This document shows positions 18,296 through 36,509 of a DNA stretch of 64,000 nucleotides, in pieces. The stretch is from Gemmatimonadales bacterium (GTDB taxonomy: Bacteria; Gemmatimonadota; Gemmatimonadetes; Gemmatimonadales; GWC2-71-9). The notes under the pieces are model-generated. The model saw nothing but the letters and a program-made list of their open reading frames with translations, did no database searches and had not been told where the DNA came from. The stretch covers positions 2,641 through 66,640 of the forward strand of contig DATLXS010000098.1 of NCBI GenBank assembly GCA_035575675.1. The letters are read 5' to 3'. A program made the translations under genes and the position numbers. Each line of letters opens with the position of its first letter. The first letter of the stretch is position 1.

Positions 18296-19302
18296 ACCTC
18301 ACGTTTTGTGTGATTGTGCAGTCTGAACGTCTCGACAAATTTCTCGCTGACCAGCTCGCTCTCTCCCGCACACAGGCCGGACGCCTCATCGCCGATAAAC
18401 GCGTGACCGCGCGCGGCAAAGCGCTGCGCGCCTCCGCCCTGCTGGAACGCGGGACGGAAGTGACGGTCGACCTGCCGGACGAAGAACCCCCACGGAGCTA
18501 CACGCCGTTTCACGCCGATTTACGCTTTGTGTTCGAGGACGAGCATCTCGCCGTGCTCGACAAGCCCGCGGGCCTCGTCGTCCATCCCGGCCCCGGCCAC
18601 TGGAACGACACGCTGGTGAATGTGCTGGTTGGGCGGGGCACCGATCTGTCGGGCGGCCCGGCGGCGGAAGCCGGCCGTCCGGGTATCGTGCATCGCCTCG
18701 ACCGCGACACCTCGGGGCTGCTGGTCGTCGCGAAGAGCGATCTGGCGCATCGGCGTCTCGCCGGCGCGATCGAACGCCGCACGGTGAAGCGCGTCTACGC
18801 CGCGCTCGTGTGGGGCCACCTGCGCAAGAGTCCCGTCGATATCGAGGCGCCGATCGCGCGCCATCCCAAAGAGCGCAAGCGCATGACGGTGGCAGACGGC
18901 GGCCGCCACGCGGTCACGCACGCGGCACTCGTGGCGCGCTTCGCGCACAGCGATCTGTTGCGCGTGCGGCTCGGCACCGGCCGGACCCACCAGATTCGCG
19001 TGCACCTCGCGCACGTCGGGTGCCCGATCGTCGGCGACCGCGAGTACACCTTCGGCGGCAGTCGCCGCGTGACGCCGTCATCGCGCCCTGAGGCCGAGCG
19101 GCTCGAGCGGCTCGCGCCACGGCAGCTGCTGCACGCCGCCGCGCTGTCGTTCACGCATCCGGTGACCGGTGCGCCGGTCGCCCTGACGTCGGAATGGCCG
19201 GAGGACTTGCGTCCCGCGCTGGCTGAAGCGGCGGGAGACGCGAATTTGCTTGCCGAGCGCAACCCCTTGCAGTATCTTGGGTTCTTCGCATCCGATGACT
19301 GA
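18292..19302 (+). CDS. rluD: 23S rRNA pseudouridine synthase RluD family
   Basis: S4-like N-terminus (RLDKFLADQL) and catalytic motif HRLDRDTSGLLVVAK. Start taken at the TTG at 18292 (TTGA overlap with the lspA stop). In-frame GTGs at 18310 and 18316 are alternatives. Confidence 0.85.
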   Translation: MNLTFCVIVQSERLDKFLADQLALSRTQAGRLIADKRVTARGKALRASALLERGTEVTVDLPDEEPPRSYTPFHADLRFVFEDEHLAVLDKPAGLVVHPGPGHWNDTLVNVLVGRGTDLSGGPAAEAGRPGIVHRLDRDTSGLLVVAKSDLAHRRLAGAIERRTVKRVYAALVWGHLRKSPVDIEAPIARHPKERKRMTVADGGRHAVTHAALVARFAHSDLLRVRLGTGRTHQIRVHLAHVGCPIVGDREYTFGGSRRVTPSSRPEAERLERLAPRQLLHAAALSFTHPVTGAPVALTSEWPEDLRPALAEAAGDANLLAERNPLQYLGFFASDD

Positions 19303-19822
19303 CGGAAGCCTCGTCTCCGCTCGCTTACTCGTGTTCCGCGTGGGAGCACTGGTGTGCGCCGCCGAGGTGGACCAAGTGCGGGAGATTCTCCCGCGCCTCC
19401 CAACGACGCGTATCCCGGGCGCGCCCCCGGTCGTGGCGGGGCTCGTGAATGTCCGCGGCACTCTGGTGACGGTCGTGGAAGGGTGGCGTGCGCTGGGCCA
19501 GGCACCGCCGGGTCCGCCCGCATCCCCCCCCGCCGAGACGTCCCAGACTCAAGCACCTGAGGCCGCGGGCTCGACGATCATCCTCGAGATGGGCAAGGGT
19601 GAGTCAGGGGCTGGGGCGACCGGAGCGCACGAGGGACAGCTGATCGGGTTTACGGTGGATGAGGTGATGGACATGCTCGCGGGTGGTGCGACGACGCTGG
19701 AGGACCGCACCGGTCTTCCGGGGGTCGATCCCACGCTGGTGCGGGCGGTCGGGCGGCGGAATGGTGAACTGTTCATCGTGTTGGACGTCGCGGCGCTGTT
19801 GGGCCCGATTCTGACTACTTAA
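19295..19822 (+). CDS. cheW: CheW-like coupling protein with Pro/Gly-rich insertion
   Basis: Trimmed to the ATG at 19295. Contains LLVFRVGALVCAAEVDQVREILP...IPGAPPVVAGLVNVRGTLVTVV and a C-terminal FTVDEV...LFIVLDV. Carries an internal low-complexity segment with a C8 run and a G-rich array. Confidence 0.8.
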   Translation: MTDGSLVSARLLVFRVGALVCAAEVDQVREILPRLPTTRIPGAPPVVAGLVNVRGTLVTVVEGWRALGQAPPGPPASPPAETSQTQAPEAAGSTIILEMGKGESGAGATGAHEGQLIGFTVDEVMDMLAGGATTLEDRTGLPGVDPTLVRAVGRRNGELFIVLDVAALLGPILTT

Positions 19823-19832
19823 GGAGCGCGCA

Positions 19833-20195
19833 GTGAGCCACACGGTTCTCGTCTGTGACGACGCGATCTTCATGCGCACGATGATCACCGACATCCTGGC
19901 GCAGGCCGGGTTCGAGATCGTCGGCGAGGCGGAGACCGGCACGCAGGCCGTCGAGAAGTATCGGCAACTCAAGCCGGACCTGGTCACGATGGACATCGTG
20001 ATGCCCGACATGGGCGGCATCGACGCGGTCCGCGAGATCGTGAAACAGGATCCCGACGCCAAGATCCTGATGTGCAGCGCCATGGGGCAGCAGGCGCTGG
20101 TGGTCGAAGCCATCCAGGCGGGTGCCAAGGACTTCGTCGTCAAGCCGTTCCAGCCCTCCCGCGTCCTCGAAGCCGTGCAGCGCGTTCTGGGCTAG
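19833..20195 (+). CDS. cheY: chemotaxis response regulator CheY
   Basis: 120 aa single REC domain. VCDDA acidic pocket, phospho-Asp in VTMDIVMP, SAMG, VVKPF. AAGGAG-like RBS upstream. Confidence 0.93.
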   Translation: MSHTVLVCDDAIFMRTMITDILAQAGFEIVGEAETGTQAVEKYRQLKPDLVTMDIVMPDMGGIDAVREIVKQDPDAKILMCSAMGQQALVVEAIQAGAKDFVVKPFQPSRVLEAVQRVLG

Positions 20196-20197
20196 CG

Positions 20198-22144
20198 ATG
20201 GACCTTTCGCAGTACGCCGAGCTGTTCCTGGCCGAGAGCCGCGAGCACTTGAGCGCCTGCAATCAGCTGCTGCTCGAGTGGGAGCGAACCCCAACCTCCG
20301 CGGAGCCGGTCGGCGGCCTGTTCCGCGCGGTGCACACGATCAAGGGGATGGCGGCGACGATGGGCTACGCCAAAGTCGCCGATCTCGCGCACCGCATGGA
20401 AAACCTGCTCGACCATCTGCGCCGCGGCGGCCGGGCACCTGCCGCCGACGTCATTCAACTGCTGTTTCGCGCCACCGACGCGCTCGAAAAAGCGGTGGAG
20501 CTCGCCGTGCAGGGCCGCGAGGGAGAAGCGGATGTCGGCGCGATTCTCGCCGACGTCGACGGGGCCGCTGCGGCGCATCACGCGAAACCCGCCGCGCAGC
20601 CCAGCGCGCTCGCGCGTTTCACGCTTGCATCTCCTGAGCCCGACGAGCCTGACTCCTCCCCGAGTCTGCCTGCTGCGCCTGCTGCGCCTGCTGCGTCTGG
20701 CAGAACCCCCCTTGTCCAGGTGGTGATACGGTCGGAAGCGCCCCTGAAAGGTGGGCGCGCGATGCTGGTCGTTCGCAGAGTGCAGACCCTGGGCACCGTG
20801 AACCGCGTGCAGCCGCCGCTCGCCGCGTTCGAATCGGACGATTTCGACGGCCGCTTCTCGTTCGAGCTCGACACCGCGAAGTCGGCGGCCGACATCGAAG
20901 CCGCCATCCGGTCTGTGGGCGACGTCGAGCGCGTCAGCTTCGGCGGCGCGGCCGGCGACGAAGGGCAGGTCACGCCCGCGGAAAGCGCGGGCCGCGGCCG
21001 CCACATCCGCGTGGATCTGCGCCGGCTCGACACGCTGATGGATCTGATCGGCGAGCTGGTCACCGAACGCGGGCGCCTGAATGATCTCGCCGCGCGGTGG
21101 GTGGGCAAAGATCCGGAGATCGACGAAGTCGCGATCCATATCTCGCGCCTGTCCGCCGATCTGCAGAACGAAATCATCCAGGCGCGCATGACGCCGGTGT
21201 GGCAGGTGTTCGACCGCTTTCCCCGGCTCGTGCGCGACGTCGCGCGCCAGCTCGGCAAGCAGGTGGCCTTCCGGGTGGAGGGCAAGGAGATCGAGCTCGA
21301 TCGCGAAATCCTCGACGAGCTCGGCGATCCTCTGGTGCATCTGCTGCGCAACGCCGTCGACCACGGGATCGAGTCGCCGGCCGAGCGGAAACGGCTCAAG
21401 AAGGACCCGGAGGGGGAGATCGTGCTGGCGGCGGTGCGCGAGCGCTCCAGTGTGGCGATCAGCATCTCCGACAACGGCCGCGGCATCGATCGCGCCCAGA
21501 TTCTCGACAAGGCGAAGCGCGAGGGCGTCCTCGGGCCCCACGTCGAGACGCTGTCGGACGACCAGCTGCTGCGCGTGCTCGCGCGGCCCGGATTCTCGAC
21601 CGCCGAGGCGGTGACCAGCGTGTCCGGACGCGGCGTGGGTATCGATGTCGCCATGACGCGGATTCGCGCGCTCGGCGGCTCGGTCGAGATCCGCACCGAG
21701 CCGGGGAAGGGCACGGCCTTCGTGTTGCGGCTGCCGGTCACGCTGGCCATCGTGCGCGCGCTGATCGCCGCCGTGGGGCACGAGCGCTACGCGCTGCCGC
21801 TCACCTATGTCGCCGAGACGGTCGAGTTCGGCACGGTGCCGTTGACGACGATGGAAGGCCGCGACGCGATGGTGCTGCGCGATCGGGTCGTCCCCCTGGT
21901 CGATCTCCGCAAGCTCCTGGAGACCAATGGCGGCGCCCCTGCGCCGCCGCCGCGCCGTCCGGTGATTGTGTTGGAGATGGGCGAGCGGCGGGCCGGGATT
22001 GTGGTGGACGGGATGTTGAGCCAGCAGGAAATCGTGGTGAAAGGATTCGACGCGCCGCAGGGCACGCTGCCGGTCTTCAGCGGCGCGACGATCATGGGCG
22101 ATGGAGTGCCGGCGTTGATTCTCGATGCGGCGGGGCTGGTCTAA
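20198..22144 (+). CDS. cheA: chemotaxis histidine kinase CheA
   Basis: Listed ORF 20072.. trimmed to the ATG at 20198. Hpt domain with RAVHTIKG, HATPase motifs HLLRNAVDHGIE and DNGRGID...GRGVG, and a C-terminal CheW-like domain. No receiver domain. Confidence 0.95.
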   Translation: MDLSQYAELFLAESREHLSACNQLLLEWERTPTSAEPVGGLFRAVHTIKGMAATMGYAKVADLAHRMENLLDHLRRGGRAPAADVIQLLFRATDALEKAVELAVQGREGEADVGAILADVDGAAAAHHAKPAAQPSALARFTLASPEPDEPDSSPSLPAAPAAPAASGRTPLVQVVIRSEAPLKGGRAMLVVRRVQTLGTVNRVQPPLAAFESDDFDGRFSFELDTAKSAADIEAAIRSVGDVERVSFGGAAGDEGQVTPAESAGRGRHIRVDLRRLDTLMDLIGELVTERGRLNDLAARWVGKDPEIDEVAIHISRLSADLQNEIIQARMTPVWQVFDRFPRLVRDVARQLGKQVAFRVEGKEIELDREILDELGDPLVHLLRNAVDHGIESPAERKRLKKDPEGEIVLAAVRERSSVAISISDNGRGIDRAQILDKAKREGVLGPHVETLSDDQLLRVLARPGFSTAEAVTSVSGRGVGIDVAMTRIRALGGSVEIRTEPGKGTAFVLRLPVTLAIVRALIAAVGHERYALPLTYVAETVEFGTVPLTTMEGRDAMVLRDRVVPLVDLRKLLETNGGAPAPPPRRPVIVLEMGERRAGIVVDGMLSQQEIVVKGFDAPQGTLPVFSGATIMGDGVPALILDAAGLV

Positions 22145-22157: not shown

Positions 22158-22775
22158 ATGGAAGACGTCCGTGATCTGAAAGCACTGCAGCTCGACGCGC
22201 TCAGAGAAGTCGCCAACATCGGCGCGGGCCACGCGGCGACGGCGCTGTCGCAGCTGACGCACCGGCGCATCATGATCTCGGTGCCGGAGATCAACATCGC
22301 CCGGCTCGAGGAGGTGCCGGGGCTGATCGGCGATCCGCAGGAAGTCGTCGCCGCGGTCCTCATGCACATGCTCGGCGATTTGACGGGACGCACGCTGCTC
22401 ATGTTCCCCGAGCCCGTCGGCCGGCAGCTGTGCGACATGCTGCTCAAGCGCCCCCTCGGGACGACCCAGGTGTTCGAGACGATCGAGCAGTCGTGCATCA
22501 AGGAGGCGGGCAACATCCTCTCGGGCGCGTACATGAACGCGCTGTCGGAGTTCATGGGGATGCTGCTGCTGCCGTCGGTGCCGAGCCTCGTGGTGGATCT
22601 CTCGGCGGCGGTCCTCACGACGACGTACCTGAACTTCGGGCACGACCGGGACTTCGTGTTTTGCGTCGAGACGGAGTTCAATATCGATGCCCAGGACGGG
22701 CTGCGCGGCCATTTCCTGCTCCTGCCCGACCTGGCGTCGCTCAAGGCGATTTTCGACGCCATTCGGTTGACTTGA
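22158..22775 (+). CDS. cheC: CheC-type CheY-P phosphatase
   Basis: 205 aa. Both copies of the CheC active-site pattern [DS]-x3-E-x2-N-x22-P are intact (DALREVAN +22 aa +P, and SCIKEAGN +22 aa +P). Confidence 0.9.
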   Translation: MEDVRDLKALQLDALREVANIGAGHAATALSQLTHRRIMISVPEINIARLEEVPGLIGDPQEVVAAVLMHMLGDLTGRTLLMFPEPVGRQLCDMLLKRPLGTTQVFETIEQSCIKEAGNILSGAYMNALSEFMGMLLLPSVPSLVVDLSAAVLTTTYLNFGHDRDFVFCVETEFNIDAQDGLRGHFLLLPDLASLKAIFDAIRLT

Positions 22776-25471
22776 CGGTCTCAGAGCGTGACGTAGCGGT
22801 CCTGAGGTCCTTTGCCCGCCGGATCGATCCCTCCGATGCGGGCGCGCATAACAATCTCGGCGTTCTCTACTACCAAAAAGCCCTCGTCCCCGAGGCGATC
22901 GAGCAGTTCACCCGCGCCCTCGAGCTCGACCCGCGCATGCAGGTCGCGCAGCGGAATCTCGAGATCGCCTACCACAATACCGGGTACTACGACCGCCGCG
23001 TGGCCGAGCTTCAGGAGAAGCTGCGCAGCGCGCCCGACGAGCGCGACGCGCGCTGGGAGCTGGGCCGCACGTATGCGATCCTGGGCGCCTCCGAGGAGGC
23101 GGTCGCCGAATTCGAAGAGCTGCTGGCACACAAGCCGAAGGACGTGGCGGCGATCATCCAGCTCGGACTCGCCGAGAAGGCCCGCGGACGTCTGGAAGTG
23201 GCGACCGAGTGGTTCCTGCGGGCCGTCGAAGACGAGCCGGACTCCTCCGTCGTCCACTTCTACCTTGGCGAGGTCTACTACAACCGCGGGCTGAACGAGC
23301 CGGCGCTGACCGCCCTCGAGCGCGCCGTCTCGCTCAATCCCGACAACGCGAACGCGCATTACCTGATGGCGTTCGTGCTGGGCGACATGGGGCGGCATCA
23401 GGACGCGCGCGCCGCGTCGAAGCGCGCCATCCAGCTGAACCCGCCGCTGGCGCGCGCGCAGACCAACCTGTCGCTGGAGCGCTACCGCGCCGAACGCCAG
23501 TCGGCCGAGCACCGCCTGCGCGAGCACCCCGCGCCCGAGGTCGCCGAGGGCAGCGAGCTCGCGCATTACAACCTCGGCCTCGCGTTCCGGCAGAAGGGCT
23601 ACTACGCCGAGGCGCTGCGCGAGTACCGCCTCGCGATCGAGCGCGGCGAGGATCGCAGGCTGGTGCGCCAGGCGATGGCGGAAGTGCATCTCCTCAAGCG
23701 CGACTTCACCGATGCGCTCGAGCTGTACGAGTCGCTGATCCATGAGATCCCCGACTCGCCCAAGCTCTGGAACGAGCGCGGCGTCGTGTTGCATCAGGCG
23801 GGCCGAACGGCGGACGCGCTGACGTCCTACCGCCAGGCGACGGAGGTCGATCCCCGCTACGCGCTCGCGTGGAACAACATCGGCGTCGTGCTGGCGCATC
23901 AGGCCGATACCGAAGATGCGATCGAGGGATTTCGGAAAGCCCTGCAGCTGTCGCCGGCGTTCGTCGGCGCCCGCCTCAACCTCGCGCTGCTCCTGACCCA
24001 CCTGCGCCGCTTCCAGCTCGCGCTCGAAGCGTATCGCCAGGTGCTGGCGGAACAGCCGGGCTCGGCGCCGGCGTGGAACGGGGTGGGACTCGTGCTCGTC
24101 GAGCTGAAGCGCTTCCCCGACGCCCGGAACGCCTTCGTCCGGGCCGTCGAGGCCGACCCGCAGAACGCGGGCGCCCACTACAACCTCAGCTTCACGCTCT
24201 CGAACCTCGGCGACTACGACGGCGCGCTGCGCGCGACCAAGCGCGCGCTCGAGCTGGACCCGTATTACGTGTCGCAGAAGTTCGCGCTGGCGATCGATCT
24301 GCAGTATGAGACGGTCGCGATCGGCATCGTGCCCGAGATCTCGGCCGACGTCGCGGCCGAGAGCCTGGGCGGCGAATTCGCGTTCGACCAGCGGCTGATC
24401 GACAACATCTTCCAGGAGCTGGAGCCGCCCGCCGGCGCGGCCCAGGCCGCGCCGGCCGGGCTGGCCAAGCGGGCCGACGATCCGCTGGCCCTGGCGCGCG
24501 ATTATGTGAGCAAGGGAATGATGGACCTCGCCGTGGCGGAGGCGATGCGCGCCGTGCAGCGCGGCGCGGACCGGGGCCAGGCCGCCACGCTGATCGGCGA
24601 CAGCTATGCCCGGCGCGGCCTGCACGGGGAGGCGCTGGAACGCTACCGCGAGGCGCGCACGCTCGATGCCGCGAACGCCCCGGCCGCGCTCGGCGAGGTG
24701 AAGAGCCTGCTCGCCGTGCACCGCTCCGCCGAAGCGCTGCCGCTCGCCGAAGACCTGGTCGCCAAGGCGCCCGAAGACGTCGAGGTGCTCGTCGCGGCCG
24801 CGAAGGCGCGCGCGGCGACGGGCGATGCGGCCGGCGCGCTGACGGCGCTGCGGCAGGCCCAGACCCGCGCGCCGGACCGGGCCGATCTGCACAAGCTGCA
24901 GGGCGACATCGCCCTGAAAGTCGGCGACCGCCAGGCCGCCCGCGCGGCGTACCGCTCGGCGCTCGACCTCGATGAAGGGTTCGTGCAGGTCTGGCTCGAT
25001 CTCGGGCGGCTGCACGAACAGGACGAAGAGTGGGTGGAAGCGCAGCGCGCGTACGAAGCGGCGCTCGAAGCGCTGCCGACCTTCCACGAGGCGGGGCTCG
25101 CGCACGCGGACCTGCTCAGGCGCACGGGGGATCTGCGGACCGCGGTCGTACGGCTCGCCGAGATGCTGGAGCAGGATCCGTACGACATGGACGCGCTGCT
25201 GCTGCTCGGTCGCACGCTGCTCGACGACAAGCGCGGCGTCGAGGCGCTCGAAGCGTTCCGGCGCGCGCTGAAATTCGATCCCGAGCACACCGGTGCACTG
25301 TTTTACCTGGGCGTGACGCTCGCGAAGCTGCAGCGCTACACCGAAGCGGTGGCCGCGTGGGACCGCGTGACGCGCATCGATCCCGGCGGGCCGTTCGCGC
25401 AACGTGCGCGCATGCACGCGCGGACCGCCGTCGACTTGCAGCACATCTTCTCCACCTCGGACGCGGCCTAA
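22772..25471 (+). CDS. large tetratricopeptide-repeat protein
   Basis: Listed ORF 22430.. trimmed to the TTG at 22772 (TTGA overlap with the cheC stop). 899 aa of near-continuous TPR units (repeated A..Y..AL.L.P pattern). No TM and no MCP signalling motif. Confidence 0.8.
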   Translation: MTVSERDVAVLRSFARRIDPSDAGAHNNLGVLYYQKALVPEAIEQFTRALELDPRMQVAQRNLEIAYHNTGYYDRRVAELQEKLRSAPDERDARWELGRTYAILGASEEAVAEFEELLAHKPKDVAAIIQLGLAEKARGRLEVATEWFLRAVEDEPDSSVVHFYLGEVYYNRGLNEPALTALERAVSLNPDNANAHYLMAFVLGDMGRHQDARAASKRAIQLNPPLARAQTNLSLERYRAERQSAEHRLREHPAPEVAEGSELAHYNLGLAFRQKGYYAEALREYRLAIERGEDRRLVRQAMAEVHLLKRDFTDALELYESLIHEIPDSPKLWNERGVVLHQAGRTADALTSYRQATEVDPRYALAWNNIGVVLAHQADTEDAIEGFRKALQLSPAFVGARLNLALLLTHLRRFQLALEAYRQVLAEQPGSAPAWNGVGLVLVELKRFPDARNAFVRAVEADPQNAGAHYNLSFTLSNLGDYDGALRATKRALELDPYYVSQKFALAIDLQYETVAIGIVPEISADVAAESLGGEFAFDQRLIDNIFQELEPPAGAAQAAPAGLAKRADDPLALARDYVSKGMMDLAVAEAMRAVQRGADRGQAATLIGDSYARRGLHGEALERYREARTLDAANAPAALGEVKSLLAVHRSAEALPLAEDLVAKAPEDVEVLVAAAKARAATGDAAGALTALRQAQTRAPDRADLHKLQGDIALKVGDRQAARAAYRSALDLDEGFVQVWLDLGRLHEQDEEWVEAQRAYEAALEALPTFHEAGLAHADLLRRTGDLRTAVVRLAEMLEQDPYDMDALLLLGRTLLDDKRGVEALEAFRRALKFDPEHTGALFYLGVTLAKLQRYTEAVAAWDRVTRIDPGGPFAQRARMHARTAVDLQHIFSTSDAA

Positions 25472-25474: not shown

Positions 25475-26611
25475 ATGGCGATCGAAGGACCGCTTCGCGA
25501 GCTTGGGATCCACGACGTCTTCCAGCTGCTCGACTTGAGCCGGAAGACGGGTGCGCTGCGCGTCACCTCGGAGCTGCGCCACAACGAGGGCAAGATCTAC
25601 TTCGATAACGGCGTCGTGGTGTCGGCGGAGATTCGCAGCAACCCCCACCCGCTCGGCGCGTTGCTGCTGCGCACCGGCAAAATCGCCGAGGCCGATCTCG
25701 AGCGGGCGCGCGACATGCAGCAGCGGCAGGGCGACAAGCGCAGACTCGGCGAGATCCTCGTGGCGCTCGGCGTCATCACCCAGCGCGAGGTCGAGCGCCA
25801 GATCCACTTCCAGATCGAAGAAGTCGTCTTCGAGGTCATGAGCTGGAACGAAGGCTACTTCTCGTTTGCGGAAGAGGCCGAGAGCAAGGTGCCCACCGAG
25901 GTCACGGTCCGCATCCCGGTGGAAGCGCTCTTGATGGAAGGCGCGCGCCGCATCGATGAATGGTCCCGGATCGAGAACCGCATTCCCCATGTCGGCGTGG
26001 TGCCGTCGCTCGCGCCGCCGCCCGAAGGCGGCGGCGGCGAGCTGGATCTCCTGCCGCCCGAGTGGGAAGTGCTGGCGCTGATCGACGGCGATCGCTCCGT
26101 GCGGGGTCTCGCGACGGAGCTTGGCCGGTCCGATTTCGAAGTCGCCAAGACGCTGTTCGGGCTCGAGAGCGCCGGCGTCATCGTGCTGGTGGATCCGGGG
26201 ACGGCCAAGCGCGGGCGTCCGAGCGCCGCGGGCGAGCTCACGGAGCAGGTGGCGAAGGCGGAGCGTGCGCTCGTCGCGAAGGACCTCGACGCCGCCCGCG
26301 CCGCCGCCGAACAAGCGGGCAGCATGCAGCCGCACGACGCGACGATTCATCTTCTGCTCGGCCGCATCCATCTGGCGCAGGGGCACGCGTCCGCCGCCGC
26401 CGAGGAGCTGCGGCGCGCGCTCCGGCTCGATCCGTTGCTCGCCGCGACGCATCGCCACCTGGGATTCGCCCTCGTCGCGATGGGCCGGTTCGGCGAAGCC
26501 GTGCAAAGCTGGGACCAGTGGGAGCGCTTGGCGCGCACGACGGAAGAGGAGGCGCACAAACCGGACGTGCAGCGCGCCCGCGACGCCGCGCGAGTGTTCA
26601 GCAATGGCTGA
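25475..26611 (+). CDS. PATAN/DUF4388 domain protein with helical MshEN-like insert and C-terminal TPRs
   Basis: 378 aa. N-terminal GPLRELGIHDVFQLLDLSRKTGALRV...GKIYFDNGVVVSAE is the DUF4388 signature. Also carries paired RLG..LV..G motifs, a wHTH-like LALIDGDRSV segment and TPRs at the C-terminus. Confidence 0.8.
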   Translation: MAIEGPLRELGIHDVFQLLDLSRKTGALRVTSELRHNEGKIYFDNGVVVSAEIRSNPHPLGALLLRTGKIAEADLERARDMQQRQGDKRRLGEILVALGVITQREVERQIHFQIEEVVFEVMSWNEGYFSFAEEAESKVPTEVTVRIPVEALLMEGARRIDEWSRIENRIPHVGVVPSLAPPPEGGGGELDLLPPEWEVLALIDGDRSVRGLATELGRSDFEVAKTLFGLESAGVIVLVDPGTAKRGRPSAAGELTEQVAKAERALVAKDLDAARAAAEQAGSMQPHDATIHLLLGRIHLAQGHASAAAEELRRALRLDPLLAATHRHLGFALVAMGRFGEAVQSWDQWERLARTTEEEAHKPDVQRARDAARVFSNG

Positions 26612-27775: not shown

Positions 27776-28248
27776 GTCAACAGACCCGCGCCGTCGAAAA
27801 CTGGACGCTGCAACCGCTCACCGACTTCGTGCGGGAAGCATCGGCGCGTCTGGTCCTGGTGCTCACGCCGTCGGGGCAGGTGCTGGCGCAATCGGGATTC
27901 TCGCGCGCCGTCGATGTCATGTCGTCCGCGGCGCTGGCGGCGGCGATCGTCGCCACGACCGGCGAGCTGGCGCGCCAGCTGCGGCAGCCGCCCTTCGCGG
28001 CGCTCAGCCATCAGGGCCCCAAGACCGGGTTCTTCCTGGCGACGTTCTCGACCGAGCGCGGCACGCTGGCGGTGCTCGCCGTCTACGATCTCGATGTTTC
28101 ATCGCTCGGCTTGGTTCAGTTATTCTATGAGCAGCTTGCGGCGGACTTGAAGACGGCTAGCCCAAAGGGGGCGGTCCCCAAGCAGGTGCTCGCGGCCGAC
28201 TTCGAGCGCGAGTTGACGGACAGCCTCAACACGCTGTTTGGGAGATAG
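27772..28248 (+). CDS. mglB: MglB-like Roadblock/LC7 GTPase-activating protein
   Basis: Listed ORF 27148.. trimmed to the ATG at 27772. 158 aa with a Roadblock core ending in SSLGLVQLF, plus a C-terminal extension ending DSLNTLFGR, as in M. xanthus MglB (SLGLVRLR ... DNLFSE). Lies immediately upstream of mglA. Confidence 0.8.
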
Positions 28249-28853: not shown

Positions 28854-30802
28854 CCAGCACGCTCAATCCCCGCTTCACGTTCGACACGTTCGTGGTCGGC
28901 GCCGCGAACCGCCTCGCCGTCACCGCCGGGCGCACCGTCGCGGAGAATCCGGGCTCGGCCTACAACCCGCTCTTCATCTATAGTGGCTCGGGGTTGGGCA
29001 AGACGCACGTGCTGATGGCCATCGGGCACGCCGCCAAGGTCATCGCGTCGCAGTTGAACATCGAGTACCTGACGTTGGACGAGTACGTTGAGGCGCTCCA
29101 CGCCGCGATCGCGGCGGGGCAGGGCGACGCCTTCCGGCGCCGGTTCCAGAACGTCGATGTCTTGCTCGTCGACGACGTGCAGTTCCTCACCAATCGCAAG
29201 GAGATGCAGACCGAGTTGCTCCGCCTGACCGAGGCGCTGCAGCAGGGCGGTCATCAGATCGTGCTCGCGAGCGATCGCCCCCCGGCCGAGATCGCGGACC
29301 TGGACGAGCGTCTCATCTCGCGCTTTTCCGGCGGGCTCGTCGTCGATATGGGCATCCCCGACTACGAAACGCGCGTCGCCATTCTGCGCCGCAAGGCCGA
29401 GGAGCGCGGGACGAAGTTCCAGCCGGGGATCCTCGAGACGGTCGCGAAAGTCGAGTATCCGAACGTCCGCGAGTTGATGGGCGCGCTCAATCGTCTGATC
29501 GCCTTCCAGGCGGTGAACGACACGCCGATAAACGCGGATGCGGCGAGCAAGGTGTTGGGCATCCCTACCGCCGCTTCACCGACCGCCGCCTCATCTACCG
29601 CCGCTTCACATACCGCCGCCTCACCCGATGAATTCAGCCAGTTCCTGACCGACGTCACCGTGACCGTGGGCAAGGCCGTCGAGGCGTGGCGCGCGCGCGT
29701 GACCGAGGCGGTGATGCGCTGGGAGGGAGAAGGCTACCGGACGGGCCGGCTCGAAAAGCTCCTCGATCAGGAGACGCCGGCCGCGGTGGACGAAGTGATC
29801 GCGTCGTACGTGCGCGACGTGGAACGGCTCAAGGCGCTCGAGGCGGAAGTGGCGGTGCTCGATCCCCAGGCCGCGGGTGAGAAAGTCTTCCGCGATCCCG
29901 AGCACATGGACGCGGCCGAGGCCGCCGCCGCGAAGGTTCGCGACGGCGCGGCGCCGCCGCCGGCCCCGTCAGGCGCATTTCCGCTCGACGCGTACGTCGC
30001 CGGGCCGTCCAACGAGGTGGCATTGAACGCCGCGCGCGACTGCGTCGCGAAGCCCGGGAAGAAATACAATCCCCTCGTGATCGTCGGCCGCAGCGGGCTC
30101 GGCAAGACGCACCTGCTCAACGCCATCGGGCTCGAGCTCGCGAAAAAGAAGAACGCGGTGGTCGCCTGCCTGTCGACCCAGCAGTTCGTCGACGAGCTGA
30201 TTGCGGCCATCGACGGCAACCGGGTGGACTGGTGGCGCGCGCGCTATCGGCGTGCGACCGCGCTGCTGCTCGACGACATCCATCTGCTCGCCGGCAAGGA
30301 GCGCACGCAGGAAGAGCTGTTCAACCTTTTCAATCAACTGGTCGACGCCGACCGGCAGCTCATCTTCACGGCGCCCGCGCACCCGAACACGCTCGAGGGG
30401 CTCGAGGAGCGCATCGTGTCGCGGCTCGAAGGCGGGCTCGTGACGGAGATCGCGGAGCCGGACAAGGAGCTGCGCCGGAGCATGCTCGAGCGCCTGCTCA
30501 CGCACCAGCACGTGGCGCTCGAGCCGGCGCTGCTCGACTACCTGGCGGACCGGCCCATCGATTCCGTCCGCAACCTGACCGGCGTGGTCCAGCGCGTGGT
30601 CGAGGCCGCCGCGGCGCAGGACGCGCCCGTGACGGCGGGTCTGGCGCGCGATGTGCTGGAGGGAGCGCCTCCGCCGCGCCGCACCGCGGGACTGCGCACC
30701 AGCGGCATCGTCGTGTCGAGCGCCGGCGGCGTGCGCAGCCGGGAGAAGATGGTCTGGGACTGGCCCGCCGCTGCTGATCGCGTCATCGAGGATCTGCGCT
30801 GA
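28850..30802 (+). CDS. tandem DnaA-type AAA+ protein (two DnaA domain-III modules; no domain I or IV)
   Basis: 650 aa. Module 1 (res 6-222): [54 protein letters not shown]. Module 2 (res 377-590): [44 protein letters not shown] saw no DnaA C-terminal HTH signature. ATGA overlap with the mglA stop. Confidence 0.85.
29567..29626. repeat. 15-nt x4 in-frame tandem repeat (TAAS-x pentapeptide)
   Basis: ACCGCCGCTTCACCG ACCGCCGCCTCATCT ACCGCCGCTTCACAT ACCGCCGCCTCACCC encodes [20 protein letters not shown] in the linker of the double-DnaA protein. Confidence 0.9.
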
Positions 30803-32418
30803 TGGCCATCAAGGGCTCGCTCAAGGAAGCGTCGCTCCCCGACGTGCTGCAGCTCCTGGCGCTGGGGCAGAAAACCGGCTGCCTGTCGATCGCCGACCGC
30901 TCCAACTTCGGCTACATCTATTTCGACCGGGGCCGGATCTCCTACGCGTCGATCGTGAACCGCCGCGATCGGCTCGGCGACATCCTCGTGAAGCACGAGA
31001 AGATCACGCAGGACCAGCTGGACGCCGCGATCCACCGCCAGGCGAAAGAGCGCGACAAGAAGCTGGGCGAGATTCTCGTGCTCCAGAGCGTGCTCACGCA
31101 GCAGGAGCTCGAGCGCTACATGCGCATGCAGATCGAGGAATCGGTCTACTATCTCTTCACATGGACGCAGGGCACGTTCAACTTCGAAGCCGACGTCCGC
31201 CCGGAGCAGCAGGACTTCCTCGTCTCGATCAACCCGGAGTCCCTGCTGCTCGAGGGCGCGCGGCGCGTGGACGAGTGGGGCCTGATCGAGAAAAAGATCC
31301 CGTCGTTCGATCTGATCTTCCTCGTGGACCGCGACCGCCTGGCCATCAGCGACGCGAAGCTGACGGAAATGCAGGATCGCCTGCTCCCGCTGCTCGACGG
31401 CTCGCGCGACGTCAATCAGGTCATCGAAGATTCCGGCCTGGGGGAATTCGAGGTCGGCAAGGCGCTCTACGGCCTCGTCACCGCCGGCTTCCTGCATCGC
31501 GCCGGCCGCACCGCCAGCGCCGAAGACGTGAAGATGACCGACGCGCGGGTGGAGGAGCACCGCAACCTCGGCATCGCCTTCTACAAGACGGGCATGCTCG
31601 ACGAAGCGGCGCGCGAATTTCGCCGCGTCGCCGAGCTGCGCGCGTCGGATGCCAACGCGCACTTCTTCATCGGCCTGGTCGCGCTGAAGCAGGCGCGCTG
31701 GCGCGAGGCGATGGAGGCGCTGCGGCTCGCCGCCGAAAAAGGCGGGTCACGGCCCGCCGTGCTCCACAATCTGGGGCTCGCCTACGAGCAGGTCGGCCGG
31801 CTGGAGGATGCCGAGGCGGCCTACTCCGAGGCGGCCACGCGCGCGCGCACCGATCCGCGGGTGTACGTGGGATGGGGCATCGTCGCGCTGAAGCAGGGCG
31901 ACCATGCCAGCGCCGCCGGGCGGCTCGACCGCGCCAAGGAGCTGTTCGCCGACAAGGTGCCCCCGATCTGGTTCTGGGCGCGCGCACTCACCGCGGCGGC
32001 GGCGGGCGATTTCGAGACGGCGGAACAGGTGGCCGTGCAGGCCGTGGAAACGCATCCGCACAACGGGGTGTTGCGCAACAATCTCGCCGTGCTGCACGAG
32101 CTGGCCGGCGCGCTGCCGCAAGCCGAGGCGCTGGCGCGCGCCGCGCTGCAGGACGAGCCGTCCCTGCCGCAGCTGTCCAAGAATCTCGGCGACCTGGCCT
32201 ACCGCGGCTCGCGCTACGATGAAGCCTGGGCGCTGTATCAGCGCGCGATCGAGCTGTCGCCCGAGCTGGGCGATGACGTCTACTTCAAGCTTGGCAACAT
32301 CGCCTACAAGCGAAACGAGCGCGACCAGGCGAGCGAGCTGTGGCGGCGCGCGCTCGAGCTCAATCCCAAACACGAGCTCGTCAAGGCCAATCTGGACACC
32401 CTGAGCAGTTTGTCGTGA
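30802..32418 (+). CDS. PATAN/DUF4388 domain protein with helical MshEN-like insert and long C-terminal TPR array
   Basis: 538 aa. GSLKEASLPDVLQLLALGQKTGCLSI...GYIYFDRGRISYAS signature, paired [RK]LG..LV motifs, wHTH-like LLPLLDGSRDV segment, then TPRs. Paralog of 25475..26611. Confidence 0.8.
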   Translation: MAIKGSLKEASLPDVLQLLALGQKTGCLSIADRSNFGYIYFDRGRISYASIVNRRDRLGDILVKHEKITQDQLDAAIHRQAKERDKKLGEILVLQSVLTQQELERYMRMQIEESVYYLFTWTQGTFNFEADVRPEQQDFLVSINPESLLLEGARRVDEWGLIEKKIPSFDLIFLVDRDRLAISDAKLTEMQDRLLPLLDGSRDVNQVIEDSGLGEFEVGKALYGLVTAGFLHRAGRTASAEDVKMTDARVEEHRNLGIAFYKTGMLDEAAREFRRVAELRASDANAHFFIGLVALKQARWREAMEALRLAAEKGGSRPAVLHNLGLAYEQVGRLEDAEAAYSEAATRARTDPRVYVGWGIVALKQGDHASAAGRLDRAKELFADKVPPIWFWARALTAAAAGDFETAEQVAVQAVETHPHNGVLRNNLAVLHELAGALPQAEALARAALQDEPSLPQLSKNLGDLAYRGSRYDEAWALYQRAIELSPELGDDVYFKLGNIAYKRNERDQASELWRRALELNPKHELVKANLDTLSSLS

Positions 32419-33194
32419 GCAAAGCTCCTCCGGAGCGAGGCTTCGAAGCGCTGACGGAAAAGATCTCACGCGAGCGGGGAGTCAGCTGCGGGTCGTACAA
32501 GGATAAATGCATGAAGCGCCGCATCGCGGTGCGCATGCGCGCCCGCGGCGTCCATACCTACGAAGACTACGGCAAGATTCTCGATCACGACGCGCACGAG
32601 TACCAGGAGCTCCTCGACGCGCTCACGATCAACGTCACCAAGTTCTTCCGCAACGCCGAAACCTGGACCGCGCTCCGGCCCCATCTGGAGGCGATCGCCC
32701 GGAGACGTCCCACACTGCGGGTCTGGTCGGCGGGATGCGCCTCGGGCGAGGAGCCGTACACGATCGCCGTGCTCATGACGGAGCTGGGCGCCCAGGGTGT
32801 CATCGACGCGACGGACGTCGATCGATTGAGCCTCGAGCGCACCCGGCAGGCGCACTATCCGGACGGGGCGTTCACCGAGATGCCGTCGCACCTCAGGCGC
32901 CGCTATTTCGAGGGCGGCCAGCCGGTGCCCGAGGTCCGCGCGCTGGTGCGCGTCCAAAGCCACGATTTGATGCGCGAGCGTCCCCCGCATCCGCCGTACG
33001 ACCTGATCGTATGCCGCAACGTCGTGATCTACTTCGAGCGCCAGGCCCAGGAGCGGCTGTTTCAGACCTTTGTGGATGCGCTGGCGCCCGGGGGCGTGCT
33101 CCTGCTCGGAAAAGTCGAAACCCTGTTCGGTCCCGCGCGCGAGCACCTCACCCTCGTCGATCCGCGCGAGCGGATTTACGTACGGCCCGGGTGA
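32415..33194 (+). CDS. cheR: chemotaxis protein methyltransferase CheR
   Basis: Trimmed to the GTG at 32415 (GTGA overlap). Motifs TKFFRN, VWSAGCASGEEPYTIA, CRNVVIYF. Confidence 0.92.
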   Translation: MSKAPPERGFEALTEKISRERGVSCGSYKDKCMKRRIAVRMRARGVHTYEDYGKILDHDAHEYQELLDALTINVTKFFRNAETWTALRPHLEAIARRRPTLRVWSAGCASGEEPYTIAVLMTELGAQGVIDATDVDRLSLERTRQAHYPDGAFTEMPSHLRRRYFEGGQPVPEVRALVRVQSHDLMRERPPHPPYDLIVCRNVVIYFERQAQERLFQTFVDALAPGGVLLLGKVETLFGPAREHLTLVDPRERIYVRPG

Positions 33195-33673
33195 AAGAAG
33201 TCATCGTCAAAGTCGCCGACTGGGCCGCCGAACGTGGCGATGGCGTCCTGATCACCCTCGGACTCGGTTCCTGCGTCGCGATCATGCTGCACGATCCGCA
33301 AGCCAAAACGGGCGCGATGGCGCACGTCCTGCTGCCGTCGACCAGCCTCGCGCGCGATCTCACGAACCGCGCCAAGTTCCCGGAAACGGCCGTGCCGCTG
33401 CTCATCGAGCGGCTCAAGGCGCTCGGCGCGGACCCGCGGCGGCTCGTGGCGAAACTGGCCGGCGGCGCCCGCATGTTCAGCCAGCTCGTCACGCCCGGCA
33501 CCATCCAGATGGGCGAGCGCAACGTCCTGGCGTCGCGCACCGCGCTCCGCGTCGCGGCCATCCCGGTCATTCGTGAGGCGGTGGGCGGCGACCGCGGCCG
33601 CAGCGTGCGGTTTTACGTGAAAGACGGCCGGGTAGAGATCCGGTCGGTGGGCGTCGATGCCGACGTCATCTGA
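33191..33673 (+). CDS. cheD: chemoreceptor glutamine deamidase CheD
   Basis: Trimmed to the GTG at 33191 (GTGA overlap). Motifs [31 protein letters not shown]. Confidence 0.9.
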
Positions 33674-34748
33674 CGCGTCCGGCCGCCCAAGCGTGGTCGT
33701 CGCCGACGACAGCGCGCTGATGCGCCGGGTGCTGGTCGATGTCCTCGGCGCCGAGTTTCGCGTCGTCGCGACCGCGCGCGACGGTCTCGACGCGATCAGC
33801 AAAGTGCACGAGCACAGGCCCGACGTCGTCACGCTCGATCTCGAGATGCCGCGGCTCGATGGGCTGGGCGCCATCGGCTACATCATGTCCGAGTCGCCGC
33901 GCCCGATCGTCGTCGTCAGCGCGCACGCTGGGCCAGGCACGCAGTCCGCGATTCGCGCCCTCGAGCTGGGCGCGGTGGAAATCGTCGCCAAACCGCCCCC
34001 TGAAGTCTTCGGTCATCCGCGCGCCGCGCTCGAGGCGCTGGCGCCGGAGCTCATCGGCGCCGTGCGCCGGGCGCTCGCGGCAGACCTCTCGCACGTCAAG
34101 GTGTTGGCGCGCCCGCCGGCGCCGGTGGTTCATCCGCCCGAGCACGCGCTGCGCGGGCGCGCCGTGCTCGCCGTGGGCGTCGCCGCCTCGACCGGTGGTC
34201 CGCGCGCGCTCGCCGACGTCGTGCCGCGCCTGCCGACGGGCCGCGGCGCCGCGATCTTCATCGTGCAGCACATGCCGCCGAAGTTCACGCGCAGTCTCGC
34301 CGAGCGGCTCGACTCCATGAGCCCGTTGCGCGTCGTCGAAGCGGCCGACGGCACCCCGATTGTGGCTGACACGGCGTACGTGGCCCCGGGCGATTATCAT
34401 ATGCGGGTGCGTTCTGCTCCCGACGGACCTGTCATCGCGCTCGACCAATCCGCGCCCCTGTGGGGCGTCCGGCCCGCGGCCGATCCCTTGTTCCGCTCCA
34501 TCGCCGAGGTCTATGGCGCGCGCGGCATTGGGGTCGTGCTCACGGGCATGGGGCGCGACGGGGCCAGCGGGCTGCGCGCGATGCATGACGCCGGCGGCAC
34601 CGGGCTCGCCCAGGATCGGGAAACGGCGGTGATTCCCGGGATGCCGGTGGCGGCGGTGCAGGCGGGCGGCGTCGACGCGGTCCTGCCGCTCAGTCAGATT
34701 GCCGACCGCGTCGCAGCCGAGTTGCTGCGGCGGGTGGGAAACCGATGA
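33657..34748 (+). CDS. cheB: protein-glutamate methylesterase CheB (REC + esterase)
   Basis: 363 aa. REC domain with VVADDS and VTLDLEMP. Esterase domain with ASTGGP, VQHMPP and GMGRDGA. Confidence 0.93.
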
Positions 34749-35164
34749 AGGGTTATTTGCTGGTGCGTTCCGAGGGAAAATCGTACGGCCTGCCGGTCGC
34801 CCGCGTGCTCGAGGTGGGTGACGCCACGGAAGTGCTTGCCATTCCGCGCAATCTGCCCGCGGTGCGGGGCCTGACGCCGCTGCGCGGACGGCTCGTGCCG
34901 CTGATTCATCTGGGCGCGCTGCTCACGGGGAGCGAAGCACCCCCCGCCGGCGGCCACGCGGTGCGCACGGTCGTCCTCGTCGAGCTCGGCGCGAGCGGGC
35001 GGCAGGTCGCCTTGGAAGTCGATGACGCCGATGCGGTCGTCCGCGAGCAGCCGCTGCCCGTGCCGCGCGGCCAGGCGCTGCCGTGGGCGGCCGGCGTGGC
35101 GGAGCAGGAGGGGGGATTGGTGCCGATCCTGGACCTCGACGCGCTCGGGGATCGCATTACGTGA
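34745..35164 (+). CDS. cheW: CheW-like coupling protein
   Basis: 139 aa. [20 protein letters not shown]...[24 protein letters not shown] overlap with the cheB stop. Confidence 0.8.
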
Positions 35165-35640
35165 CGACGACCACGACGCTGAGCTCGGGCGGCGACGATG
35201 TGCAGCTGGTCACCTTCAAAGTGGGCGGCCAGGATTTCGCGTTCAACATTTTTCAGGTCGAACGCATTCTGCGGTATGAAGCGCCCGCGCCGTTGCCGAA
35301 GGCGCCCGAGTTTCTCGAGGGCGTGCTGCAATATCAGGGCGGTGCCGTGCCGCTCATCGATCTGCGCAAGCGACTCGGCGCGGAGGCGCCGCTGCGCGAG
35401 GACACGCGGACCGTCATCCTCGAGTTCGATGGCGGCAAGATCGGCATGATTGTCGACACCGTGACCGAGGTGATGCAGGTGTCCGCGCAGGCGGTCACGC
35501 CGCCGCCGGGCATCGTCCGCGGGCTGGCGGCGGAGTACATCGCCGGCCTCCTCGTGCAGAACGGACGCACGATCGTCGTCCTGAATACGAACAAGCTGCT
35601 GAACTCGAAAGAGAAACTGGCTTTGCAGGGAGCGACCTGA
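35161..35640 (+). CDS. cheW: CheW coupling protein
   Basis: Trimmed to the GTG at 35161 (GTGA overlap). LVTFKVGGQDFAFNIFQVERIL...PEFLEGVLQYQGGAVPLIDLRKRLG...IGMIVDTVTEVM. Confidence 0.88.
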   Translation: MTTTTTLSSGGDDVQLVTFKVGGQDFAFNIFQVERILRYEAPAPLPKAPEFLEGVLQYQGGAVPLIDLRKRLGAEAPLREDTRTVILEFDGGKIGMIVDTVTEVMQVSAQAVTPPPGIVRGLAAEYIAGLLVQNGRTIVVLNTNKLLNSKEKLALQGAT

Positions 35641-36509
35641 TGGCTGAAACGCCGGTCGCGGCGCTGCGCCGGGAATACGATGCCATCGCCCGGCAGCTCG
35701 AAGGGGGCGGCCCCTCGGGCAACGCCGAGCGCGAAGCCGCCAAACGGGAGATCATCGCCTTTTTCAAGAAGGTCGACGGGATGCTGGGCGAGATGACGCA
35801 GTTGAAGGACGACATCCGCCAGCTCGTCGATCGCTACAAGCAGCTGGCCGCCGACACCAAGCAGGCCGCCGCGCCCGAGTTCACCGGGCAGCGACCGGTC
35901 CTGCATGCCGATCATATCGGCGCGACCACGTTCATCGAAAAAGGATGGAGTCTGATCTCGTTGGGCGACCACGCCGGCGCGATTCAAGCGCTCACCAAGG
36001 CACTCCAGCTCTCGCCTGGGGAGACGCAGGCGGAATCGCTGCTCGGCTGGGCACAGATGCTGCACGAAGACTACGACGATGCCCTCGGCACCTTCCAAAA
36101 AGTGCTGATGAAGGAGCCCGCGAATTCCCTCGCGCGCATCAACGTCGGCTACATCTGTCTGAAGAAGCGGATCTTTGGCGAAGCGATCGAGCATCTCTCG
36201 AAGGCGATCCGGCTGGACAACGACAAGAAGGCGACGCTGTACGCCCATTTCTATCTCGGGCTCGTCTACCTGCAGCGCGAGATGTTCGAGGACGCGGAGA
36301 CGTTCTTCGAGAAGACCATCAAGCTCGGCCCGAACCTGATCGAAGCCTATTACGAGCTGGGACGCGCGCACTGGTTCGGCGGCGACCAGGACAAAGCCAA
36401 ATCCACCTGGGCGGACGGCTTCAAGGCGAACAAGTTCAATCCCTGGGGCAAGAAGTGTCAGGAGATGCTGGAGCGTGTCGCCAAGGGCGAGGAGCCGCCG
36501 CGAGAATAG
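35640..36509 (+). CDS. coiled-coil + TPR protein
   Basis: 289 aa. N-terminal helical/coiled region, then 4-5 TPR units. TGATG junction with cheW. Confidence 0.75.
   Translation: MAETPVAALRREYDAIARQLEGGGPSGNAEREAAKREIIAFFKKVDGMLGEMTQLKDDIRQLVDRYKQLAADTKQAAAPEFTGQRPVLHADHIGATTFIEKGWSLISLGDHAGAIQALTKALQLSPGETQAESLLGWAQMLHEDYDDALGTFQKVLMKEPANSLARINVGYICLKKRIFGEAIEHLSKAIRLDNDKKATLYAHFYLGLVYLQREMFEDAETFFEKTIKLGPNLIEAYYELGRAHWFGGDQDKAKSTWADGFKANKFNPWGKKCQEMLERVAKGEEPPRE

Follow-up and report, generated by a model that had tools for sequence, protein, structure and literature searches.

The window analysed here is a stretch of 64,000 nucleotides from contig DATLXS010000098.1 (assembly GCA_035575675.1) of a Gemmatimonadales bacterium, with a G+C content of 66-72% and coding sequence almost entirely on the + strand. 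The system in question is a string of 18 consecutive + strand genes (g1-g18, positions 19295-36509) in which chemosensory (che) genes enclose genes for an MglA-family small GTPase and its putative regulators. Analysis of open reading frames (ORFs) and starts reproduced the three blocks that an earlier note, made from the sequence alone, had described, and Pfam hidden Markov models upheld its domain calls for all 18 proteins (Table 1). Block 1 encodes CheW, CheY, CheA and CheC; block 2 encodes an 899-aa TPR protein, a PATAN/DUF4388 protein with TPR, a protein with TPR and Roadblock, a Roadblock protein, a Roadblock/MglB-like protein, MglA, a protein of two DnaA-type ATPase modules and a second PATAN protein with TPR; block 3 encodes CheR, CheD, CheB, two further CheW proteins and a TPR protein. 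When the junctions are measured with the start nearest to each preceding stop, the distances from g1 to g18 are +10, +2, +13, -4, +3, -8, -4, -4, +2, -4, -1, -4, -4, -17, -4, -4 and -1 nt, with overlaps at 12 of the 17 junctions and a widest gap of 13 nt, the same values as given in the note. The starts match independent gene calls on the near-identical public contigs L001-L003 in 16 of 17 genes, and g5 is called as an identical 899-aa protein on L001. The exception is cheR, which is given as a 227-aa version on some near-identical contigs; the longer GTG start at 32415 is favoured because CheR_N is matched at residues 9-59. A scan for sigma-70 promoters found no site in 13500-33000, although the consensus may not fit Gemmatimonadota promoters. 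Pfam scans of essentially all larger ORFs agree with the note that the window holds no flagellar, type IV pilus or gliding genes, and they found no gene for a methyl-accepting chemotaxis protein (MCP) in the string or the window.

Table 1. Genes of the che-mgl string (g1-g18), followed by features of its flanks; positions are those of the window.
Feature	Position	Strand	Description	Evidence
g1 cheW	19295..19822	+	CheW, 175 aa	Pfam CheW, E 2e-21
g2 cheY	19833..20195	+	single-domain response regulator, 120 aa	Response_reg, E 4e-31
g3 cheA	20198..22144	+	Hpt-P2-dimerisation-HATPase-CheW, 648 aa	Pfam
g4 cheC	22158..22775	+	CheY-P phosphatase, 205 aa	Pfam CheC
g5	22772..25471	+	all-TPR protein, 899 aa, TTG start	multiple TPR families
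g6	25475..26611	+	PATAN (DUF4388) + TPR, 378 aa	DUF4388, E 3e-33
g7	26604..27428	+	TPR::Roadblock fusion, 274 aa	TPR families; Robl_LC7, 24.1 bits (cutoff 23)
g8	27425..27775	+	Roadblock/LC7, 116 aa	Robl_LC7, E 9e-10
g9	27772..28248	+	MglB-like Roadblock protein, 158 aa	Robl_LC7, 23.4 bits (cutoff 23)
g10	28251..28853	+	MglA-family small GTPase, che-linked paralogue, 200 aa	PDB MglA, E 1e-72
g11	28850..30802	+	tandem DnaA-type AAA+ protein, 650 aa	Bac_DnaA matched twice
g12	30802..32418	+	PATAN (DUF4388) + TPR, 538 aa	DUF4388, E 2e-38
g13 cheR	32415..33194	+	CheR, 259 aa, GTG start	CheR; CheR_N (residues 9-59)
g14 cheD	33191..33673	+	CheD, 160 aa	Pfam CheD
g15 cheB	33657..34748	+	receiver + methylesterase, 363 aa	Pfam
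g16 cheW	34745..35164	+	CheW, 139 aa	Pfam CheW
g17 cheW	35161..35640	+	CheW, 159 aa	Pfam CheW, E 2.5e-33
g18	35640..36509	+	TPR protein, 289 aa	TPR families
YggS	12229-12906		upstream of the string	
DivIVA	12798-13373		upstream of the string	
rluD-like	18082..19302	+	pseudouridine synthase; longest ORF, true start probably later	Pfam PseudoU_synth_2
Peptidase_MA-like	36581..37405	+	274 aa	weak Pfam match, below cutoff
61-aa ORF	37419..37604	+	probably small membrane protein	weak DUF3098 match
tRNA-Val (TAC)	37627..37701	+		ARAGORN
TPR protein	37736..39556	+	606 aa, fast-diverging	Pfam TPR; 24-36% identity in distant loci
tRNA-Asp (GTC)	39599..39674	+	promoter-like site before it at 39548-39576	ARAGORN; promoter scan
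terminator-like hairpin	39691..39719	+	strong, intrinsic type, 11 pairs + T run	terminator scan

The arrangement is conserved well beyond this contig. MglA relatives were scanned in one genome per species, and the window proteins were mapped onto the 80 most similar loci, which were fetched at ±10 kb and thus end about 900 nt before mraW. The closest MglA sequences carry the names Gemmatimonadales or Gemmatimonadota, and near-identical metagenome contigs carry the same genes. All 43 loci with an MglA 63-99% identical to that of the window keep the same order as far as the contig reaches, namely rluD-cheW-cheY-cheA-cheC-TPR-PATAN-TPR::Roadblock-Roadblock-MglB-MglA followed by 2xDnaA-PATAN/TPR-cheR-cheD-cheB-cheW(-cheW)-TPR-peptidase, and both che blocks are visible in 18 of them. 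The labels among these loci are Gemmatimonadales, Gemmatimonadaceae, Gemmatimonas sp. and Longimicrobiales, the contigs of the last being short and showing block 2 only; most of the cluster-bearing loci come from catalogues of soil metagenome-assembled genomes (MAGs). The other 37 of the 80 loci, 14 of them labelled Gemmatimonadota, have an MglA 53-64% identical and carry a plain mglB-mglA pair or mglA alone, with no che genes within 10 kb. Across the distant loci of the cluster, median identity to the window proteins is 88% for CheY, 78% for MglA, 67% for CheC, 65% for g18 and 38-57% for all others, and the junctions still overlap or lie a few nt apart where most of the proteins are 40-55% identical. 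That CheY and MglA are the most conserved members is the pattern expected of hubs with many partners.

The members of the string vary unevenly between loci. The cheW gene g16 is the most variable, with an N-terminal extension in some loci, and two Gemmatimonadaceae loci (L024, ~16500-18000; L033, ~16500-18100) carry one further gene, for an AAA_22 ATPase, between cheB and cheW, after which the CheW protein has a long low-complexity N-terminal extension. This ATPase was not used as a clue to a pilus or secretion output, as its best match is a PEP-CTERM-associated ATPase model, below cutoff. Single members gave no match in a few loci (cheR in L042; cheB and cheW in L034; the DnaA-like gene and cheD in L040), which may reflect divergence or true loss. 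In the most divergent of the loci, L049, the DnaA-like protein has a single module, and the TPR gene is followed by cheW and then a HAMP-MCP receptor gene. Two labels look like binning or labelling errors: a full che-mgl cluster named Acidimicrobiia (L017) and a canonical MglA named Bifidobacteriales (L063).

A search with the DnaA-like protein of L049 as query reached relatives named Candidatus Edwardsbacteria, candidate division TA06 and Zixibacteria, the taxon names being labels given by the MAG depositors. Three of these loci (L087, labelled Candidatus Edwardsbacteria, L088 and L089) read CheY-CheA-CheC-(~895-aa TPR)-PATAN/TPR-TPR::Roadblock-Roadblock-(182 aa)-(197 aa) and continue with DnaA-like (single module)-PATAN/TPR-CheR-CheD-CheB-TPR-CheW-MCP-MCP, with L087 ending within the second MCP gene; L090 (Zixibacteria) and L092 have the same core order. 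The proteins of 197 aa are MglA; they share 59-66% identity with the window MglA and are placed on the che-linked side of the tree. The proteins of about 895 aa are orthologues of g5 at 29-31% identity in the same position in L087-L089, the TPR::Roadblock fusion of the g7 type recurs in L087-L090 and L092, and a TPR gene follows cheB in L087-L089 and L092. Receptors probably belong to the system, because MCP genes stand inside the cluster in L049 and in L087-L089. The neighbourhood survey of mglA homologues proposed in the earlier note thus found the interleaving of che and mgl genes kept across Gemmatimonadota and also present on contigs labelled Edwardsbacteria and Zixibacteria.

Some of these loci carry additional genes. 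In L088 (from 21034) and L089 (from 21478) the two MCP genes are followed by an additional CheW and then a Ser/Thr kinase with PEGA domains, and in L092 a TIR-domain (CAP12-PCTIR) gene, a uracil-DNA glycosylase gene and two small genes lie between cheW and the MCP gene (11592-14297). On the TA06-labelled fragment L091, a 986-aa AAA_16 and TPR (STAND-like) protein (140-3100) occupies the expected place of MglA directly before the DnaA-like gene; mglA is not visible on this fragment, which begins just upstream, making its loss uncertain.

The GTPase is encoded by g10, whose product matches MglA of Myxococcus xanthus with E 1e-72 at 57% identity and that of Thermus thermophilus with E 2e-68 at 56% identity; the P-loop (G19...G24 K25 T26), the intrinsic arginine R53, T78 and Q82 are invariant in a three-way alignment, and the TxxGQ motif carries Thr instead of Asp, as in Group 1 MglA. 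Judged by its sequence, g10 is a genuine Group 1 MglA with its catalytic motifs intact. It also belongs to a lineage of its own: in a neighbour-joining tree a bipartition sets the che-linked MglAs apart, and they are 54-64% identical to M. xanthus MglA, whereas the canonical Gemmatimonadota proteins are 64-72% identical to it. Residue 22, within the P-loop GPGRSGKT of g10, is the sole clade-diagnostic position found between the two groups, being Arg in more than 90% of che-linked MglAs and Leu in the canonical ones. Both locus types occur in one MAG, as che-linked L044 and canonical mglBA L062. The possibility that g10 is simply the orthologue of the canonical mglA, paired only with mglB, was discarded, as it falls in its own clade and a separate canonical pair exists; because canonical mglB-mglA pairs without nearby che genes are found separately in Gemmatimonadota, the embedded MglA is a dedicated paralogue. 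In the published record, Gemmatimonas aurantiaca has two Group 1 MglAs, GAU_1115 listed as 'MglB>MglA>' and GAU_1409 as 'PATAN>MglA>-PATAN>', with che genes unmentioned (Table S2, PMC4316618).

The g9 protein lies 2 nt upstream of mglA, a position fitting MglB, and matches M. xanthus MglB in the PDB with E 1e-8 over 108 residues; the NCBIfam MglB model is covered in full length at 30.5 bits against a cutoff of 200. Thus g9 is a weak but significant MglB homologue with a putative role as GTPase-activating protein (GAP). Of the two other Roadblock proteins, g7 gives a weak match to a Thermus MglB model, and g8 matches the Robl_LC7 protein of PDB entry 7f8m with E 9e-7.

The chemosensory set comprises the core proteins CheA, three CheW and CheY, and a complete adaptation set of CheR, CheB, CheC and CheD, all four above Pfam cutoffs. 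CheY shares 66% identity with its flagellar counterpart in Thermotoga maritima, CheA has a single Hpt and no receiver domain, and the best NCBIfam matches are CheA_Halo (453 bits for g3), CheY_Halo, CheC_Thtogales and CheD_Thtga, all below equivalog cutoffs. In composition the set, with its plain CheA, its CheC and CheD and a CheY like that of Thermotoga, looks like the F1 kind of Thermotoga and archaea. A Frz-type pathway was rejected, there being no CheA-CheY fusion, CheR-TPR fusion, dual-receiver protein or receptor gene in the string, and the Tfp class (Pil-Chp/Tax) does not fit either, as there is one Hpt, no CheA receiver and no PATAN-receiver regulator.

The ATPase g11 consists of two DnaA domain-III modules, of which module 1 is 45% identical to domain III of Bacillus subtilis DnaA and 35% identical to module 2, and Walker A, Walker B, the arginine finger region and sensor II are visibly retained. 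Domains I and IV are absent (no PF08299 or PF11638), both of which are carried by true DnaA hits, and g11 as the replication initiator DnaA was therefore rejected. It nevertheless reaches 510 bits with TIGR00362 (cutoff 344), because the scores of both modules sum; current annotation rules would misname it as DnaA, and some database copies of this type of protein are indeed named 'chromosomal replication initiator protein'.

The two PATAN proteins, g6 and g12, have PATAN followed by TPR repeats and no Response_reg match, and without a receiver domain they do not qualify as PatA-type response regulators. Both match NF053729, the model of the MshE-type motif that binds cyclic di-GMP (c-di-GMP), above its cutoff of 38 (g6 residues 59-113, 42.2 bits; g12 residues 57-110, 48.9 bits), and in both the match is a helical insert inside the PATAN domain. 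The published MshEN pattern, a tandem of the 24-residue motif RLGxx(L/V/I)(L/V/I)xxG(L/V/I)(L/V/I)xxxxLxxxLxxQ, is satisfied even in relaxed form only by the second half-motif in each protein; the first half-motifs are degenerate: g12 has E in place of G, and g6 has Lys where the pattern calls for a hydrophobic residue. Binding of c-di-GMP by these inserts is possible.

Taken as a whole, the 18 genes may constitute one co-inherited signalling machine in which an F1-like Che pathway responds through a dedicated MglA-type switch, a reading to which we give about an even chance. Functional coupling of the Che and Mgl genes is strongly supported; the direction of signal flow and the target of CheY are inferred, as is the proposal that phosphorylated CheY (CheY~P) would drive the GTPase through the Roadblock/MglB or PATAN-TPR proteins. 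Receptors, encoded elsewhere in the genome in Gemmatimonadota and within the cluster in the Edwardsbacteria-type versions, would signal to CheA and the three CheW proteins. CheA would phosphorylate the single-domain CheY, CheC would reset it, and CheR, CheB and CheD would adapt the receptors. CheY~P would then target the regulators of block 2, namely the MglB-like GAP, the two further Roadblock proteins and the two PATAN-TPR proteins, and the nucleotide state or location of the paralogous MglA would change. MglA-GTP might set the polarity or activity of a polar machine, most likely the type IV pilus apparatus, together with the TPR proteins and with the DnaA-derived ATPase, which would serve as scaffold or effector. 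The MshEN-like inserts of the PATAN domains may add c-di-GMP as an input; both the pili as target and c-di-GMP as input are speculative.

Several studies lend this scheme precedent. Frz acts on MglA/MglB in M. xanthus (PMC3441718; PMC4316618), MglA is reported to act through the TPR protein SgmX on type IV pili (PMC7519303, PMC7668184), and in Synechocystis the PATAN regulators encoded in che-like operons attach to the pilus ATPase PilB1. A survey of more than 400 Gemmatimonadota MAGs detected flagellar genes in no more than one or two genomes from soil, and type IV pilus genes in all environments except marine (PMC10581226). For Zixibacteria, a literature search yielded no usable information on motility.

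A number of points weigh against this reading. Che proteins of this type normally drive flagella or archaella, and cultured Gemmatimonas is flagellated, its species having a single polar flagellum; the argument from flagella is drawn from published survey percentages, which concern other genomes than the loci studied here. No pilus gene is present in the window or in any fetched locus, no exchange factor of the RomR/RomX type was found in the string, and the PATAN proteins are without the receiver domain through which the signal enters the cyanobacterial PATAN regulators. The branch dividing che-linked from canonical MglA is short (0.018), and the MglB call is weak, barely above cutoff in Pfam and far below it in NCBIfam. 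The earlier note had proposed that a Che pathway is hard-wired to a Ras-like GTPase as its output rather than to a flagellar motor. The coupling is borne out by the profile matches and by interleaving conserved across lineages, but the exclusion of a flagellar motor is not established: a flagellar or dual output is possible, because the Che proteins are of the Thermotoga/archaeal type and Gemmatimonas has a polar flagellum.

The alternative that survives best, though we regard it as unlikely, is that the Che proteins serve ordinary taxis, with CheY~P signalling to the flagellar motor in organisms that have one, and that the Mgl block has a spatial role, organising the receptor array or a polar organelle. 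The F1-like Che proteins, the 66% identity of CheY to the flagellar protein of T. maritima, the single polar flagellum of Gemmatimonas together with the PATAN>MglA>-PATAN> locus in the genome of G. aurantiaca, and the presence of three CheW proteins beside several scaffold-type (TPR) proteins are all consistent with it. There is also precedent for positioning modules built on nucleotide triphosphatases (NTPases) within che operons: ParC/ParP in Vibrio che operons and PpfA in Rhodobacter cheOp3 place or partition chemosensory arrays. However, the cluster is retained in soil lineages where flagellar genes are almost never found, and its eight genes, including a set of GAP-type regulators, go far beyond what the known positioning modules need. 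Those members of the MglA family that have been studied act on motility machines and not on receptor arrays, and the extreme conservation of CheY and MglA fits a direct partnership.

A stronger version of the Che-to-MglA reading may also be considered, although as a whole it is doubtful. The string would be an ancient, self-contained 'sense-and-polarise' machine of Gemmatimonadota, Edwardsbacteria and Zixibacteria in which CheY~P directly gates a Roadblock/PATAN complex of MglA, the DnaA-derived ATPase, having lost DNA binding, serves as an ATP-dependent polymerising scaffold or effector, and the PATAN inserts read c-di-GMP. If true, Che-to-small-GTPase signalling would be a widespread and independently hard-wired design, not a speciality of Myxococcus, and a replication-initiator fold would have been recruited into cell polarity.

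Co-expression alone is an improbable explanation of the string. On this account both systems are needed under the same conditions, such as life on surfaces, and the operon is inherited with no direct signalling between Che proteins and GTPase. Physical contact between them is inferred and not observed, each module is complete in itself apart from the MCP, and single adaptation genes appear to have been lost in some loci (cheR in L042; cheB and cheW in L034, where no match was detected), all of which would suit two merely co-expressed systems. Yet the che genes are split around the Mgl block, a split that survived divergence between phyla; neither half is found alone beside the che-linked MglA clade in any locus, and a separate canonical mglBA is available for general use.

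The flanking genes bear on a further alternative. Upstream, the order is yggS-divIVA-phosphorylase (pnp)-ileS-DksA-type zinc finger-lspA-rluD (12229-19302), preceded by a 765-aa protein with an N-terminal TMEM260-like protein O-mannosyltransferase domain (9920-12217). The stop of the rluD-like gene overlaps the start of g1 by 8 nt, and the tight packing therefore extends upstream of the string; in 17/17 distant loci reaching that far, a rluD-like gene stands directly 5' of cheW. Downstream, the Peptidase_MA-like gene was found in 17 distant loci, and the 61-aa ORF is kept after it in 24 loci at identities down to ~40% (tblastn). The two tRNA genes bracket the 606-aa TPR gene, and the dcw division cluster follows as a run from mraW to ftsZ. 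The length of mraW is overstated in the ORF list, its real start lying after about 39750, because tRNA-Asp and the terminator precede it. The string thus sits between the yggS-to-rluD block and mraW; genes like those of the yggS-divIVA-ileS-lspA-rluD block follow the division cluster in Gram-positive bacteria.

From this position it might be supposed that the module controls polar growth, budding or the placement of the division site, which we consider very improbable. DivIVA and YggS upstream, the mraW-to-ftsZ run downstream and the adjacency to rluD, kept across Gemmatimonadota, would agree with such a role. However, no division protein lies inside the string, the loci of relatives end short of mraW with the dcw adjacency beyond their reach, and where flanks of the Edwardsbacteria-type loci are visible, they hold genes for MCPs and a Ser/Thr kinase instead. 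The earlier note had placed the dcw cluster about 3 kb downstream on the same strand; the position is correct, but as a hint to function it is weak, as three ORFs, two tRNA genes and a terminator with an 11-bp stem lie between. An operonic link was rejected, and the dcw cluster is a separate unit, because of the two tRNA genes and the strong terminator. That a che and an mgl operon came together by chance in this one genome is excluded for practical purposes, because the collinear order recurs in 43 species-level genome loci and in 5 from other lineages, where protein identity falls to about 30%.

Among the known systems closest to the Che-to-MglA string is Frz of M. xanthus, where homologues of CheA, CheW, CheR and CheB and single-domain receiver outputs likewise govern MglA, with a Roadblock-type GAP, a Roadblock paralogue (MglC) and downstream TPR effectors such as SgmX. 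The published survey (PMC4316618) bears out the earlier statement that Myxococcus has frz and mglBA at separate loci, whereas here the two sets are interleaved in one string. Frz has the CheA-CheY fusion FrzE, the dual-receiver FrzZ, FrzCD and the CheR-TPR fusion FrzF, none of which is seen in the string, and the string has a plain CheA with CheC and CheD; RomR, RomX and RomY are not seen here. In addition, the string holds two PATAN-TPR proteins, a TPR::Roadblock fusion and a DnaA-derived AAA+ protein, and its MglA is a distinct paralogue.

Other systems share single features. The cyanobacterial Tax/Pix systems also have PATAN proteins in a che-like operon, those of Synechocystis signalling to PilB1, but they are of PATAN-REC form, where the string has PATAN-TPR proteins, a separate CheY as receiver and a GTPase/GAP set between, and its CheA is not of the multi-Hpt pilus type. 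In the actinobacterial conservon (CvnA-D), too, one operon links an MglA-family GTPase and a Roadblock protein with a histidine kinase (PMC4316618); unlike the string, it is made up of four genes, its kinase is a membrane sensor and its MglA belongs to Group 2, with no Che proteins, adaptation enzymes, PATAN, TPR or AAA+. The F1 systems of Thermotoga, Bacillus and archaea share the CheA domain order, CheC, CheD and, in T. maritima, a CheY of 66% identity, but their genes adjoin those for the flagellum or archaellum and their output goes to FliM or CheF, whereas the string encloses an eight-gene GTPase module and has no in-cluster MCP in Gemmatimonadota. ParC/ParP of Vibrio and PpfA of Rhodobacter are likewise NTPase modules embedded among che genes; they are, however, ParA-type ATPases with one partner that position receptor arrays, in contrast to an MglA GTPase with a GAP-like set and a DnaA-type AAA+ protein.

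The modules are thus individually known, and functional coupling of Che and Mgl proteins is known from Myxococcus. No earlier description of che-mglA linkage was found in the literature searched, a scope that did not extend to Makarova et al. 2006 or Wuichet and Zhulin 2010; Guzzo et al. 2015 and a 2026 preprint on F1 systems leave the linkage unmentioned. The nearest precedent in that literature is the 'PATAN>MglA>-PATAN>' entry for G. aurantiaca (PMC4316618 Table S2). What appears undescribed is the interleaved operon spanning phyla, the dedicated MglA paralogue, a Che set that is F1-like rather than Frz-like, and the new components, these being a DnaA-derived tandem AAA+ protein that lacks the DNA-binding domains, PATAN-TPR proteins in which an MshEN-like insert is present and a TPR::Roadblock fusion. 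The conserved arrangement also corrects the survey of 2015, in which the neighbourhoods of Group 1 MglA were described as widely varying.

The link from a chemosensory pathway to MglA is still debated in Myxococcus, where the partners are scattered on the chromosome and have been found one by one. Here a parts list is held in one operon kept across phyla, and therefore the link between CheY~P and the regulators of the GTPase should lie among eight named genes, which is relevant to the fields of bacterial polarity and chemosensory diversity. For the Gemmatimonadota, which are very abundant in soil, poorly studied and mostly non-flagellated, the string provides a functional lead.

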